From sequence record MH359124: DNA of 64,000 nucleotides. One strand, given 5' to 3'. The notes below the pieces were generated by a model that saw only the letters and a program-made list of their open reading frames with translations, was not told the origin of the DNA and did not search any database. Of this stretch, positions 11,646 through 26,415 are shown piece by piece. A program made the translations under genes and the position numbers. How positions within the stretch are numbered: the stretch's first letter is position 1; the number at the start of each line of letters is the position of its first letter. Source of the stretch: Escherichia phage SF.

Positions 11646-12380
11646 ATGGAGCTAATCTTTTTAAGCGGCATCAAACGTAGTGGTAAAGACACTACTGCTG
11701 ATTACATCAATTCAAACTTTAAATCCATAAAATATCAATTAGCATATCCAATTAAAGACGCTCTAGCAATAGCTTGGGAACGTAAACACGCCGAAAACCC
11801 AGATGTATTCACTGAGTTGAAATATGAATACTTTGAAGGCATTGGATACGACCGTGAAACGCCATTAAATCTCAATAAATTGGATGTTATTGAATTATTG
11901 GAAGAAACGCTAATTTATTTACAACGACAATACCTGCCAATTAATGGTGTTAACGTATTATCATCACTAGAAGGTGGATACTCATATCTAGATATTAAAC
12001 CGTACGAAGCCCTGCGTGAAGCTATAAATAATATCAACGACACGTGGTCGATCCGCCGTCTTATGCAAGCCCTCGGTACGGATGTTGTCGTTAATTTATT
12101 TGACCGTATGTATTGGGTTAAGCTTTTTGCATTAAACTATATGGATTATATTGGAAGTGATTTCGATTACTACGTTGTGACCGATACACGCCAAGTCCAT
12201 GAAATGGAAACCGCTAGAGCGATGGGTGCTACAGTTATTCATGTGGTTCGCTCTGGTACGGAATCCACTGATAAACATATTACAGAAGCTGGGTTGCCTA
12301 TTGAAGAAGGCGACTTAGTTATTACAAACGACGGCTCTTTAGAAGAGCTTTATTCTAAAATTGAAAAAATCTTAAGGTAA
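11646..12380 (+). CDS. 1: deoxynucleoside monophosphate kinase gp1
   Basis: 244 aa, MELIFLSGIKRSGKDTTADYI P-loop; matches T4 gene 1 product. Confidence 0.9.
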   Translation: MELIFLSGIKRSGKDTTADYINSNFKSIKYQLAYPIKDALAIAWERKHAENPDVFTELKYEYFEGIGYDRETPLNLNKLDVIELLEETLIYLQRQYLPINGVNVLSSLEGGYSYLDIKPYEALREAINNINDTWSIRRLMQALGTDVVVNLFDRMYWVKLFALNYMDYIGSDFDYYVVTDTRQVHEMETARAMGATVIHVVRSGTESTDKHITEAGLPIEEGDLVITNDGSLEELYSKIEKILR

Positions 12381-12384
12381 TAAA

Positions 12385-13070
<686 letters not shown>

Positions 13071-13083
13071 TTTTCAAAAACAG

Positions 13084-13125
13084 TTTACATAAGGATGATG
13101 GCGTGTTACTATCATCCTATCAAAT
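13084..13125 (+). promoter_or_regulatory. early promoter with stem-loop (PeSL-like): GTTTAC -35, TACTAT -10 inside inverted repeat GGATGAT/ATCATCC
   Basis: Sequence cagTTTACataaGGATGATggcgtgtTACTATCATCCtatcaaa upstream of ATG 13147. Confidence 0.6.
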
Positions 13126-13146
13126 AAACAACCTCAAGGAAATAAA

Positions 13147-13458
13147 ATGAAAACCTATCAAGAGTTTATCGCTGAAGCTACTAAAGCCGATAAAAATTTT
13201 ATTATTAACACCACCGGTCCGTTAGATGATGAATACGCTAATGCTATTATTAAGTCAATTTCTAATCAAGGCGTTGAAGTAACAAATTTCGAATATAAGA
13301 AAAATGATACTTATATGATAATTAGTATCAAAAAAGGTTCAAAAGCCAAAATTAAATCCGCATTTGGTGTTATGCGAGTTGACCAAATCGATAACCACGA
13401 TTTTTCACAAACAGGGGCCAAACGCCAAAATACCATTTCTTCTAAAGGCATAAAATAA
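13147..13458 (+). CDS. internal-protein-like injected protein with capsid targeting sequence
   Basis: N-terminus MKTYQEFIAEA equals T4 IP capsid-targeting sequence; 103 aa. Confidence 0.7.
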   Translation: MKTYQEFIAEATKADKNFIINTTGPLDDEYANAIIKSISNQGVEVTNFEYKKNDTYMIISIKKGSKAKIKSAFGVMRVDQIDNHDFSQTGAKRQNTISSKGIK

Positions 13459-13500
13459 TTTACAACACGATAGGACTATGTTATAATAGTCCTATCAAAA
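13458..13500 (+). promoter_or_regulatory. PeSL-like early promoter: TATAAT flanked by GATAGGACTA / TAGTCCTATC
   Basis: aatttacaacacGATAGGACTAtgtTATAATAGTCCTATCaaaac. Confidence 0.6.
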
Positions 13501-13519
13501 CAACCAAATGGAACCTAAA

Positions 13520-13783
13520 ATGAAAACTTTCAACGAATTCATCTCAGAATCGTCTGGTGTGAAAATTAACAAAGCGGTCAATCAGGTTATTGCTGATATT
13601 CTTAATTTGTATAACATTGACTTAACTCCGCATATCACGCTTGGTAACAAACGAAACTTTTTCATATTTGACACATCCGAACTTGATGAAAATCAGTTCA
13701 ATAACATTCAACGTTTTGCGAATGATAAAGGTCTTCGACACGAGCCTGGCGGCTATAAAAAATACGCAATATATTTGAAATAA
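13520..13783 (+). CDS. internal-protein-like protein (CTS variant MKTFNEFISE)
   Basis: Start at internal ATG; CTS-like N-terminus; 87 aa. Confidence 0.6.
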   Translation: MKTFNEFISESSGVKINKAVNQVIADILNLYNIDLTPHITLGNKRNFFIFDTSELDENQFNNIQRFANDKGLRHEPGGYKKYAIYLK

Positions 13784-13785
13784 AG

Positions 13786-13828
13786 GTATACAAGCCTATA
13801 GGGATATGTTATAGTAGTCCTATCAAAA
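13786..13828 (+). promoter_or_regulatory. PeSL-like early promoter (GTATAC -35, TATAGT -10 in imperfect inverted repeat)
   Basis: gtatacaagcctatagggatatgtTATAGTAGTCCTATCaaaacaa. Confidence 0.5.
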
Positions 13829-13852
13829 CAAATGAGTAAATGGAGAAATAAA

Positions 13853-14038
13853 ATGAAACGCGCTGAACTGATTCGTAATGTTGCTATAGTAATTGCTTCA
13901 ATGGCTTTTAGTTTTTCGATGTTTGTAGGATTCATTTGTGGACTACTGACAACAACTGAAAACTCTATCTCATTGGTAGTAGCATTTCTAATCGGCTTAA
14001 TCGCTATCGTTATGGATAAAATTGCAAAAGGTGAGTAA
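13853..14038 (+). CDS. small membrane protein (2 predicted TM helices)
   Basis: MKRAELIRNVAIVIASMAFSFSMFVGFICGLL; ATG after GGAG. Confidence 0.55.
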   Translation: MKRAELIRNVAIVIASMAFSFSMFVGFICGLLTTTENSISLVVAFLIGLIAIVMDKIAKGE

Positions 14039-15288: not shown

Positions 15289-15362
15289 GGCCCTGTAGCT
15301 CAACGGTTAGCAGCAGTCCCCTCATAAGGGAAAGGTTACCAGTTCGAATCTGGTCTGGGTCA
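15289..15362 (+). tRNA. tRNA with anticodon CAT (Met or lysidine-modified Ile)
   Basis: Hand fold: acceptor GGCCCTG/CTGGGTC (one mismatch, one GU), D-loop with GG, anticodon loop CTCATAA, T-arm ACCAG-TTCGAAT-CTGGT. Confidence 0.7.
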
Positions 15363-15368
15363 TATATT

Positions 15369-15445
<77 letters not shown>

Positions 15446-15809: not shown

Positions 15810-16120
15810 AAGCCGGGTCGCTACCGGTAAGTCGTCGGACTGATGTTCCCTGCGTAAGGACTGGTCTTAAATAAATCTTTATGATTTGTTAATATCCCCT
15901 TACATCACAGCAGAAACGGCGCACAGAATTATCGATTCGAGGAAATATCTTTGCCGTAAGCCGAGTAGCGTTTTTGACGGAACGTTCGGATATGGTCGAG
16001 ATATGGCCTTTTAAAAATATTGAGTAGCGTCAACTGCTTAATAACCGGGTTCGAATCCCGGCGTTTCGTACAAACACTTGCCTTAGCAGGTGGAACCCCG
16101 ACAAGGTTGCCGCAAGGCAT
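15810..16120 (+). ncRNA. tRNA-like structured small RNA region (possible rnaC/rnaD-type stable RNAs)
   Basis: No convincing protein ORF; canonical T-arm CCGGG-TTCGAAT-CCCGG at 16045-16061 with possible acceptor pairing CGGAACG/CGTTTCG; multiple hairpins; ends at strong terminator. Confidence 0.35.
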
Positions 16121-16149
16121 AGCCCCTTCCGAAAGGTTGGGGCTTTTTG
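16121..16149 (+). terminator. rho-independent terminator AGCCCC-TTCCGAAAGGTT-GGGGCT-TTTTT (repeat copy 1)
   Basis: GC stem plus T-run. Confidence 0.7.
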
Positions 16150-16193
16150 GCATAATAATAAATAGATAAGTTAATTAACTTAGGAAAAGCAAA

Positions 16194-16658
16194 ATGAAAT
16201 CATACGCCGAATTTTTGACTGAACAATCTAGTTCAGATGTAAAAGCCGCTGCGATTGCAGCAATTCAAGCAGGTAAATATTCTTACAAAGACGCCTCTGA
16301 TGAAGAACGTTTCCGTTTTATTAGAGATTTTAAAGCCGAAGGTTTTACTAATGCTAATACTGTTAGCCGAGTTTTTAAAAGCCTAGCTGCATCAGGTGAA
16401 TTGTTCCAGAAAGCTACAGGTAAAGCACCTGCGCCAAAAGCGGACCCTAAAGCCGCTCAAGAAAAAAATATCGCCAAAGGAATTATTTCTAAGTATGAAG
16501 CAATTCTTAAAGAGCTTTTAGTAATCAAAACAGAAGGCCAGAAACTGGCACGAGCACATAGCTTCAAAGATAATCCTCACGCTCATAGCCTTGAGTATGT
16601 TGAAGATATCCAAAAACTTATTAAAGACCGTATCTGGTCTGCTAAACAAATTAAATAA
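16194..16658 (+). CDS. internal-protein-like protein (CTS variant MKSYAEFLTE)
   Basis: 154 aa, N-terminal CTS-like motif, Ala/Lys-rich. Confidence 0.6.
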   Translation: MKSYAEFLTEQSSSDVKAAAIAAIQAGKYSYKDASDEERFRFIRDFKAEGFTNANTVSRVFKSLAASGELFQKATGKAPAPKADPKAAQEKNIAKGIISKYEAILKELLVIKTEGQKLARAHSFKDNPHAHSLEYVEDIQKLIKDRIWSAKQIK

Positions 16659-20628: not shown

Positions 20629-20672
20629 CAGTTTACAACAAGATAGGGCTATGTTATAGTAGTCCTATCAAA
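20629..20672 (+). promoter_or_regulatory. PeSL-like promoter (GTTTAC; TATAGT inside GATAGGGCTA / TAGTCCTATC)
   Basis: caGTTTACaacaaGATAGGGCTAtgtTATAGTAGTCCTATCaaa. Confidence 0.6.
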
Positions 20673-20688
20673 TTAAATGGAGTCCACA

Positions 20689-21920: not shown

Positions 21921-21966
21921 CTGTTTACATAATTATAGGGACTATGTTATAGTAGTCCTATTAAAA
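21921..21966 (+). promoter_or_regulatory. PeSL-like promoter (GTTTAC; TATAGT inside ATAGGGACTA / TAGTCCTAT)
   Basis: ctGTTTACataattATAGGGACTAtgtTATAGTAGTCCTATtaaaac. Confidence 0.6.
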
Positions 21967-24181: not shown

Positions 24182-24670
24182 ATGAATATATTTGAAATGC
24201 TTCGTAATGACGAAGGTCTTAGACTGACTTTATACAAAGACACTGAAGGCTTTTGGACGATTGGCATAGGCCATTTAGTAGCAAAGAACCCATCTTTAGC
24301 CGTAGCTAAAGCTGAACTTGACAGAATGATCGGACGTAAATGCGACGGTACAATTACCCTTGATGAGGCTGAAAAGCTATTTAATGAAGACGTTGATAAA
24401 GCTGTTCGCGGAATCTTGGGTAATGCTAAACTTAAACCGGTATATGATTCTTTAGATGCAGTTCGTCGATGTGCGTTGGTCAATATGGTCTTCCAAATGG
24501 GTGTAGCAGGCGTCGCTGGTTTTACTAATTCTCTTCGTATGCTTCAACAGAAACGTTGGGACGAAGCGGCAGTAAATCTAGCCCAATCTAAATGGTATCG
24601 TCAGACACCTAATCGCGCGAAACGCGTAATCTCAACATTTAAAACAGGAACTTGGAAAGCGTATATATGA
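24182..24670 (+). CDS. e: endolysin (T4 lysozyme, gene e)
   Basis: [32 protein letters not shown]...; near-identical to T4 lysozyme over full length (162 aa). Confidence 0.97.
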
Positions 24671-24948
24671 AAACATATAGTGAATTTTTATCAGAATCTA
24701 TTCTTAACGAAGCTACTGACACCTTTGCAACTAAGCTAGGTGCAGCTTTGGTTGAAGCCGAAAGTCTATTAGCACGTATTTCTGAACTTGCTAGTAAGAT
24801 AGATACTCGCAAATTTGAACGTACAAGCGATATCGTTAAGCTTGAAGCCTTGTTGCGTATGTGCGATAAACCGGAAGAAATCGCCAAGAACGGTTCGCTG
24901 ATGAAACAACGTCTTGAAAAATATATTTCAGGCGCTTCAGAAAAATAG
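24667..24948 (+). CDS. internal-protein-like protein ([13 protein letters not shown])
   Basis: ATG overlaps lysozyme stop (ATATGA); adjacent to e like T4 ipIII/ipII. Confidence 0.6.
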
Positions 24949-25511: not shown

Positions 25512-25814
25512 ATGAAAACATATCAAGAATTTATTACCGAAGCGCGAGTGAGTGCAGGTAAATTAGAAGCCGCTATAAATAAAAAGGCCCATTCATTTCA
25601 CGATTTGTCCGATAAAGACCGTAAGAAACTTGTAAGCCTTTATATTGACAAAGAGCGTATTCTCGCTCTTCCTGGCGCTAATGAAGGTAAACAGGCCAAG
25701 CCTTTGAATGCTGTCGAAAAGAAAATTGATAACTTTGCTTCTAAATTCGGTATGTCTATGGATGACCTTCAGCAAGCGGCTATCGAAGCAGCTAAAGTAA
25801 TTAAAGGTAAATAA
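25512..25814 (+). CDS. ipII: internal protein II-like (CTS MKTYQEFITEA)
   Basis: 100 aa; N-terminal CTS; resembles recalled T4 IPII; next to denV as in T4. Confidence 0.65.
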   Translation: MKTYQEFITEARVSAGKLEAAINKKAHSFHDLSDKDRKKLVSLYIDKERILALPGANEGKQAKPLNAVEKKIDNFASKFGMSMDDLQQAAIEAAKVIKGK

Positions 25815-25868: not shown

Positions 25869-25986
25869 AAAATGACTCAATGAAAAAATTTTAATGAAGC
25901 CACACTGGTATAAGTATTAAGGCAAAAATATTTACATTCAAATAACATGGGAACAAGCTGGACCTCATGATTCTATGAGGGATTCC

Positions 25987-26085
25987 CGCCAACCTGTAAT
26001 AAGGTCGAGCCCAAGTGCGGTAATGGGTAATACAGAAATGGACAATTCGCGTGCCATGGAATGGCACAAACCTAGAGAGAACAAA
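25987..26085 (+). repeat. about 100 nt repeated leader element, copy A (upstream of CTS gene 26086)
   Basis: CCAACCTGTAATAAGGTCGAGCCCAAGTGCGGTAATGGGT...CGTGCCATGGAATGGCAC...AGAGAACAAAATG; second copy at 26485. Confidence 0.6.
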
Positions 26086-26415
26086 ATGAAAACATATCAA
26101 GAGTTTATCACTGAAGTTACATTATCTGCGGAACAGAAAGCTGCTATCGAAGAAGGTAAAAATCCCAAAGTAACATATAAAGTAAATAGTAAAGGCGTTT
26201 TTGATGGCTTGGTTCAAGACCCTGAATTGAAAAAAGCTCTTTCTAAAACTAATGCGTACTTTGCTCCTAAATTTAACACAGCCGGTGTACTTATTGGATT
26301 GGATGTATTCAACTCTAAAGGTGTTCTATCTAATGCCTTTGGTTATGCCGCTAACAAAATTACTAAAGCCGCATGGGAATCCAATACCAAACAAGCTCAA
26401 AAGCCTAGAGTATAA
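26086..26415 (+). CDS. internal-protein-like protein (CTS MKTYQEFITEV)
   Basis: Start at internal ATG; track N-terminal extension covers the repeated leader; 109 aa. Confidence 0.65.
   Translation: MKTYQEFITEVTLSAEQKAAIEEGKNPKVTYKVNSKGVFDGLVQDPELKKALSKTNAYFAPKFNTAGVLIGLDVFNSKGVLSNAFGYAANKITKAAWESNTKQAQKPRV

Follow-up and report, generated by a model that had tools for sequence, protein, structure and literature searches.

Probable Ip7- and Ip9-family internal head protein genes in the modular ipI locus of Escherichia phage SF

We analyzed two small adjacent genes in a 64,000-nt stretch of Escherichia phage SF (MH359124; this whole stretch is referred to below as the window): gene A (13147-13458, + strand, 103 aa) and gene B (13520-13783, + strand, 87 aa). 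We conclude, with a probability of roughly 85%, that these are internal head protein (IP) genes of the Ip7 and Ip9 families, respectively, that they belong to a modular ipI locus, and that their products are tagged with a capsid targeting sequence (CTS) and act through the following mechanism. Each gene would be transcribed from its own T4-type early promoter, and the first 10 residues of each product (M-K-T-Y/F-x-E-F-I-x-E) would serve as the CTS, tying the precursor to the scaffold core while the prohead is being assembled. The gp21 prohead protease would then cut after Glu10, so that small basic products (10.3 and 8.9 kDa) stay behind in the head, and mature Ip7 and Ip9 would be ejected into the cell with the DNA. 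Their likeliest job there would be to neutralize a first-line DNA-targeting host defense, probably a modification-dependent (type IV) restriction enzyme. Reading the locus as a modular set of injected proteins follows an already published model (Arbiol 2010, PMC2839356); descriptions of the genes and their names, of the CTS, and of the hot spot for gene shuffling date from 1994 to 2010, and close relatives are already annotated.

The original prediction, which was made from the letters of the window alone, had described a 103-aa protein starting MKTYQEFIAEA and an 87-aa protein starting MKTFNEFISE. Both open reading frames are present where it had put them, and both belong by sequence to a named IP family. 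Gene A matched PHROG 2667 (phrog_2667, "internal head protein") with E = 1.9e-38 and is 66% identical to RB15 Ip7 over its full length, and gene B matched phrog_7673 with E = 7e-49 and is 71% identical to RB15 Ip9 (UniProt Q38376), again over its full length. The 99%-identical counterparts in phage mogra are labelled "internal head protein 7" and "Ip9 putative internal head protein." A program-made list of open reading frames opens gene B four codons earlier, at 13508 (MEPKMKTF...); we took the start to be 13520, giving 87 aa, because all members of all families at this locus keep the MKT start. Relatives found by tblastn were widespread, with Ip7 in 280 phage records (all T4-like, all full-length with a CTS) and Ip9 in 180. 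The predicted mature Ip7, which would start ATKADK..., has 93 aa (10.3 kDa, pI 9.5), and the predicted mature Ip9, which would start SSGVK..., has 77 aa (8.9 kDa, pI 9.0).

The CTS was defined in T4 as the first 10 residues of IPIII, where residues 4 and 7 are used for targeting and residues 8 and 10 for processing by gp21; the propeptides of IPII and IPIII are identical to each other, and the 10-residue CTS alone loads foreign proteins into T4 heads (PMC9026906). The key residues are kept in both of our genes, as Y4, F7, I8, and E10 in gene A (CTS codons 1-10, 13147-13176) and as F4, F7, I8, and E10 in gene B (CTS codons 1-10, 13520-13549). The complete first 10 residues of gene A, MKTYQEFIAE, are those of the T4 IPII/IPIII CTS without a single change. 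A strict CTS pattern, MK[TS][YF]x[ED]F[ILV] at an ATG, was found six times in the window, always on the + strand (at 13147, 13520, 16194, 24667, 25512, and 26086), and not once in 200 shuffled versions of the window, so the motif is not a matter of chance. Orthologs at 63-75% identity all keep it, which answers the concern raised with the original prediction that orthologs might lack the motif.

We then compared 80 distinct CTS genes drawn from the window and related loci. Their consensus is M-K-(T/S)-(Y/F)-x-E-F-(I/L/M)-x-E-(A/S), and codon use varies at the conserved residues: Thr is encoded by four codons (ACT, ACA, ACC, and ACG), Tyr by TAT and TAC, Phe by TTT and TTC, Glu by two codons, and Ile and Leu together by five (ATC, ATT, ATA, TTA, and TTG). 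Positions 5 and 9 are free. Since the amino acids are fixed, the synonymous codons vary, and positions 5 and 9 drift, we attribute the pattern to purifying selection at the protein level on the residues mapped in T4, and the claim that both genes bear a CTS holds up well. These data also bear on a different explanation, that the shared N-terminus is kept only as DNA of a recombination linker and that Ip7 and Ip9 are ordinary early cytoplasmic proteins that are never packaged. Breakpoints do fall in the CTS codons, and homologs of Ip9 that have no CTS occur as early genes of siphoviruses, so the domain can work without packaging. We nevertheless regard this explanation as highly improbable, given that it is the amino acids that are kept across the 80 genes, with varying third codon positions and drift at positions 5 and 9, that the kept residues are the ones needed in T4 for targeting and cleavage, and that the 10-residue CTS by itself packages foreign proteins in T4 (PMC9026906).

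The window can be assigned to an RB69-like Mosigvirus of the T4 type. Many Escherichia Mosigvirus genomes (AV118, JM10, PHB12, mogra, phiE142) share 97-98% identity with the window over the 1.5 kb around genes A and B, RB69 matches this 1.5-kb region over 83% of its length, and the RB69/T4 gene order around ipI is reproduced from gene 1 through the tRNA region. Genes A and B lie between a left anchor, 57B (12615-13070, + strand; named 57B in RB69), which encodes an Acb1 anti-CBASS 2H phosphodiesterase (Pfam PF23474, E = 6.5e-59), and a right anchor, a tRNA.4-like gene for a small membrane protein without a CTS (13853-14038, + strand, phrog_1692; named tRNA.4 in RB69). By this position they fill the classical hypervariable ipI locus between 57B/Acb1 and tRNA.4, which is one of the two IP loci, the other being the e/denV region.

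Different phages carry different genes in this slot within nearly the same surroundings. Among Mosigvirus backbones with 94-98% identity in the flanks, the 57B-tRNA.4 slot contains Ip7 and Ip9 (the window, mogra, and phiE142), Ip7 and IPI (RB69), Ip7 only (p000v), IPI and Ip9 (KAW3E185), IPI only (CCU7), IPI and a fourth family (CAU_ECP01), or three genes (ESCO47). It is empty in L013 and L015, two IMG/VR contigs in which a single hybrid promoter-hairpin (L013:3956-4024, L015:3214-3274) links a 97-98% identical 57B gene directly to tRNA.4. At least eight cassette arrangements were present among close relatives. With a wider set that included 36 loci retrieved through 57B, for about 45 loci in all, we found at least 15 mutually unrelated families of mature proteins in arrays of 0 to 5 genes, and nearly all genes in the slot open with the CTS or a close variant. 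Ip7 and Ip9 were seen in both orders and with different neighbors. The same two families with the same CTS are found at the same 57B-tRNA.4 locus of RB15, but there the order is ip5-ip9-ip7-ip8, so that ip9 precedes ip7 whereas Ip7 precedes Ip9 in the window, and two extra cassettes (ip5 and ip8) are present; RB15 is a Tequatrovirus and the window is from a Mosigvirus.

The points at which homology to relatives stops and resumes show what is exchanged. In comparisons with phages that have IPI first, homology stays collinear up to position 13169 (the 23rd nt of gene A, within its CTS codons) and is picked up again at 13453, 3 nt ahead of the stop codon (13456-13458). With RB69, homology spans Ip7, the promoter between the two genes (P2), and the start of gene B (27 nt, up to 13546), and it resumes at 13786 with the start of a third promoter copy (P3). 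At these junctions the -35 hexamer and the 5' arm of a hairpin go with the upstream gene, and the 3' arm, the 5' untranslated region (UTR), and the Shine-Dalgarno sequence go with the downstream gene; crossovers therefore fall in the shared core GATAGGACTATGTTATAGTAGTCCTATCAAAACAA or within ATGAAAAC.... What is exchanged is the mature-protein-coding part, bounded by a repeated linker of about 70-100 bp made up of promoter-hairpin, UTR, and CTS codons. Such a linker runs from the stop codon through the -35, a hairpin overlapping the -10, the 5' UTR, the Shine-Dalgarno sequence, and the ATG into the CTS codons, and it supplies the homologous sequence through which mature-protein-coding parts are replaced, inserted, deleted, or re-ordered by recombination. 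The linkers of the window, each about 100 bp, are at 13063-13176, 13453-13549, and 13786-13858. The original prediction had proposed a modular, exchangeable set and had suggested looking for presence or absence of cassettes in related phages; the 0 to 5 genes per slot over about 45 loci, the different gene sets in near-identical backbones, and the breaks in homology within the promoter/UTR/CTS linkers bear this out.

Two irregular relatives of Ip7 were seen along the way. The RB69 ortholog, ORF156c (L002:4049-4375), reaches 108 aa, compared with 103: with the stop codon gone, the reading frame runs through the -35 hexamer of the next promoter to end in the 5' arm of the hairpin. The "ip7 protein" of Escherichia phage OLB35 (P0024, 77 aa) is a chimera of an N-terminal part of Ip7 (...GSKAKIKSSF) and the C-terminal 33 residues of Ip9 (DENQFNNIQRFANDKGLRHEPGGYKKYAIYLK), and it looks like the product of a deletion that joined two adjacent cassettes.

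Each of the two genes is preceded by a predicted T4-type early promoter with a hairpin, on the + strand, which is the early-gene direction in the window. P1 (13084-13118) has TTTACA at 13084-13089, a 17-nt spacer, and TACTAT at 13107-13112; this -35 to -10 segment lies 34 nt before the ATG of gene A. Its hairpin pairs 13092-13101 with 13109-13118 (AGGATGATGG / CTATCATCCT) in a 10-bp stem with an RNA folding energy of -13.2 kcal/mol (z = -4.55). P2 (13459-13496) has TTTACA at 13459-13464, a 17-nt spacer, and TATAAT at 13482-13487, matches the sigma-70 consensus at 11 of 12 positions, and has its -35 to -10 segment 32 nt before the ATG of gene B; its -35 begins at the base directly after the stop codon of gene A. 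The P2 hairpin pairs 13469-13479 with 13486-13496 in a perfect 11-bp stem (inverted repeat I7, 100% complementary; -16.9 kcal/mol, z = -8.1). The third copy, P3 (13787-13824, + strand), stands before tRNA.4 and is degenerate, with a -35 of TATACA and a -10 of TATAGT (13787-13815) and a mismatched stem (-5.6 kcal/mol, z = -0.46), although related locus L014 carries an intact stem in its place. P3 is 86% identical to P2 (repeat family D1), and the three copies in the window are 63-86% alike (families D1 and D2). Comparison with relatives shows that P1 stays with the first slot whether Ip7 or IPI comes next.

Near-copies of the P2/P3 core (GATAGGGCTATGTTATAGTAGTCCTATC) were also found at 20632-20673 and 21924-21966, before genes for an 83-aa protein and a 101-aa membrane protein that have no CTS. 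Because P3 and these two cores precede non-CTS genes, this type of promoter is not exclusive to CTS genes, and the promoter-hairpin element is a general linker of the early accessory region.

The hairpin is itself a selected feature. From different phages we assembled 56 distinct promoter elements of this locus; when the spacer arm was compared with the region just after the -10, 74% of the cells were paired in register versus 32-57% with a slid partner. Changes on both sides of the stem were present in 52 cells, a count reached by none of 500 shuffles, although these statistics overstate independence because the sequences are related by descent and recombination, and to that extent they count against our interpretation. 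Stem pair 17-32 was G-C in 26 sequences, A-U in 15, and G-U in 13; pair 18-31 was U-A in 20, C-G in 15, and U-G in 6. The L013 stem differs from that of the window by a clean compensatory change from A-T to G-C, for which L015 has the G-T intermediate, and several quite different stem sequences occupy the same position. For the comparison of RNA-level with DNA-level pairing, G-T mismatches numbered 37 and A-C mismatches 52 outside the -10 positions. A terminator scan made no call at the P1 or P2 stem, no T-run follows either stem, and Rfam had no match for the hairpins or the intergenic regions.

These elements had been called "PeSL-like" in the original prediction, after the promoter early stem-loop (PeSL), and this label fits in part. 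Canonical PeSLs carry their stem-loop immediately 5' of the promoter, where it terminates transcription arriving from upstream (PMC4122927, Fig. 3 legend). We compared our elements with those of RB49/phi1, PST/T4, and nt-1/KVP40 (PMC2839356, PMC4122927), for which the defining features also include excised mini-circles. P1 and P2 fit the PST/T4-type early promoter consensus TTTACW-N17-TAYWAT, from which P3 deviates, and they also fit the AGNA-loop-TCNT stem (as AGGA...TCCT; PMC4122927). Like PeSLs, the elements flank small non-essential genes and coincide with the breakpoints of insertions, deletions, and replacements between close relatives. The early promoter with a hairpin before each gene is as had been proposed, but the stem lies inside the promoter and not upstream of it: in both P1 and P2 the 5' arm is in the spacer between the -35 and the -10, and the 3' arm takes in the -10 and reaches about +1. 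At P2 the -35 directly follows the gene A stop codon, so that an upstream stem-loop could not be accommodated. Arbiol 2010 (PMC2839356) likewise describes the elements of the IP locus as analogs of PeSLs and not homologs, and we use "PeSL-like" as an analogy only.

What these probably injected proteins might do is suggested by the few CTS proteins that have been characterized. The T4 proteins Ip1, Ip2, and Ip3 inhibit three different type IV enzymes of the GmrSD type, one each (PMC12373910), IPIII is active from a plasmid even without its CTS (PMC9391042), and Bas37_0260, a CTS protein at the ipI locus, inhibits McrBC (bioRxiv 10.1101/2025.11.20.689424). By analogy, anti-restriction is our best guess for Ip7 and Ip9. 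Similar to the T4 proteins, mature Ip7 and Ip9 are predicted to be small and basic, and gene A is where ipI sits in T4, but genes A and B share just the CTS with the IPI family (F5). Bas37_0260 (phage KarlGJung, MZ501089) has the same locus, the same CTS, a similar size (77 aa), and the second slot, next to tRNA.4, but its mature sequence is unrelated. We considered whether it might be an Ip7 or Ip9 protein and ruled this out, as it belongs to a different family (F6); its function is for that reason not transferable to Ip7 or Ip9.

The proteins might also be packaged and yet serve the particle itself, as core or scaffold accessories or as DNA-condensing counter-ions, in the way that T4 IPIII takes part in head assembly. 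Both predicted mature forms are basic (pI 9.5 and 9.0), Ip7 is modeled with a disordered Lys/Arg-rich tail at residues 75-103, T4 IPIII mutants are slower in head assembly, and IPs were long thought to bind DNA (PMC9026906). The locus is dispensable, however, being empty in L013 and L015 and reduced to one gene in p000v and CCU7; unrelated folds fill it in different phages, which fits an arms race better than a structural need; and the four CTS proteins whose targets are known all inhibit restriction (PMC12373910; 10.1101/2025.11.20.689424). We therefore think a particle role unlikely and prefer the reading of Ip7 and Ip9 as injected anti-defense proteins.

Several further results weigh against this preferred reading. 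Sequence and structure searches matched neither Ip7 nor Ip9 to IPI*, a known type of GmrSD inhibitor, or to any protein of known function. No late promoter (TATAAATA) was found near either gene, the nearest + strand match being at 12023, and the supply of protein at the time of prohead assembly is thus not accounted for. The literature that we searched contained no virion proteomics on Ip7 or Ip9 that would bear on their presence in the virion or on their cleavage; packaging, gp21 cleavage, and ejection are inferred from the CTS. Finally, a restriction target that is strictly specific for hydroxymethylcytosine (hmC) is disfavored because the Ip9 domain occurs in phages not known to use hmC-modified DNA. 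The DNA of the phage group to which the window belongs contains arabinosyl-hmC.

The AlphaFold model of Ip7 has a mean predicted local distance difference test (pLDDT) score of 67 overall and about 85 in the core, which is modeled as beta-alpha-beta-beta-alpha and is followed by the disordered basic tail. The Ip9 model (AF2) has a pLDDT of 85 and an alpha-beta-beta-alpha-beta-beta fold. Structure searches with the two returned only generic ferredoxin-like/ACT folds (for Ip7, at E of at least 0.01) or HAD-cap and GspM-like folds; the sole significant viral match was an uncharacterized 535-aa protein, and Pfam had no match for either protein. We also considered gene B as half of a 2H phosphoesterase akin to the neighboring Acb1, given a shared D-x-TPHITL (TPHITLG in gene B) that is like the catalytic HxT. 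This was ruled out: the His is mostly Tyr in Ip9 orthologs, there is a single motif only, BLASTP against 57B matches just 7 of 9 residues, and the predicted fold is not that of a 2H enzyme.

The mature domain of Ip9 was found outside T4-like phages, without a CTS and beginning right at helix 1, which is a modestly new observation. The 43-kb siphovirus Bas70 encodes a 72-aa homolog (L009:2507-2725, 57% identity) as the first gene of its early rightward operon, and Seuratvirus KS_S4 encodes one of 74 aa (L010:1992-2216, 44% identity). In Ackermannviridae the domain is the C-terminal part of proteins of 755-861 aa encoded beside structural genes, as in Kuttervirus pertopsoe, where it makes up the last ~75 residues of a 755-aa protein (L049:4223-6490) whose gene adjoins structural genes. 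When 1.8 billion representative proteins were scanned exhaustively with HMMER, just 10 relatives of Ip9 came up, some with a CTS variant (MKFNEFLTE, MKSFKEYLTE) and others opening at helix 1. The homologs without a CTS illustrate the CTS as an add-on tag. One tentative idea, to which we give somewhat less than even odds, is that the Ip9 domain is a general early anti-host module of phages, which T4-like phages equipped with the 10-residue CTS and so converted to an injected effector that is loaded in advance. If so, its target would be a host function or defense common to phages of very different DNA chemistries and not an hmC-specific restriction enzyme.

Because every CTS protein characterized so far is a specific restriction inhibitor, Ip7 and Ip9 are good candidates for new anti-defense activities. 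They are widespread, are probably injected, and are candidates for explaining differences in host range among therapeutic Mosigvirus phages. For exchanging the payload of T4-type heads, the linker architecture offers a design rule taken from nature.

IP genes had also been placed near lysozyme in the original prediction, and this is where we found the second IP locus. Lysozyme e (24182-24670) lies near denV, and an Ip5-family CTS gene (24667-24948, + strand, phrog_3499) overlaps its end; the product is 48% identical to Bas37_0261 and RB15 Ip5. Two more CTS genes follow on the + strand, both starting MKTYQEFITE: one of 100 aa (25512-25814, phrog_7857, internal virion protein) and one of 109 aa (26086-26415, phrog_3966). 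The Ip5 family stands at the ipI locus in Tequatrovirus and in phages Bas37 and RB15, and next to e in the window, from which we conclude that IP families move between the two IP loci.

Between the last two genes there is a non-coding stretch of about 200 nt (25880-26085, best at ~25937-26090) that shows 90-99% conservation across 747 phage records, among them Tequatrovirus, Yersinia, and Klebsiella phages, which is far above that of the IP genes on either side. Rfam returned nothing for it, and its folding energy does not stand out (z = -0.76).

The remaining CTS-like gene, at 16194-16658 (+ strand, 154 aa, MKSYAEFLTE; phrog_2280, function unknown), is not part of either classical IP locus and may be a third IP locus. 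The tRNA region and a terminator-like hairpin immediately precede it; it has no early promoter in front, and an upstream AATAAATAG resembles a late promoter.

The other genes around the ipI locus are as expected from RB69 and T4. Upstream are gene 1 (dNMP kinase, 11646-12380, + strand) and 57A (12385-12615, + strand), and downstream the tRNA.4-like gene is followed by tRNA.3 and tRNA.2 and then by tRNA-Met and tRNA-Arg (15289-15445); head genes 21 and 22 are outside the window. Downstream of tRNA-Arg is a structured-looking non-coding stretch (15810-16170) for which neither ARAGORN nor Rfam gave a match. It contains a T-arm-like GGTTCGAATCC and a strong terminator-like hairpin near 16125-16150, and may be the counterpart of the small stable RNAs of the T4 tRNA region.

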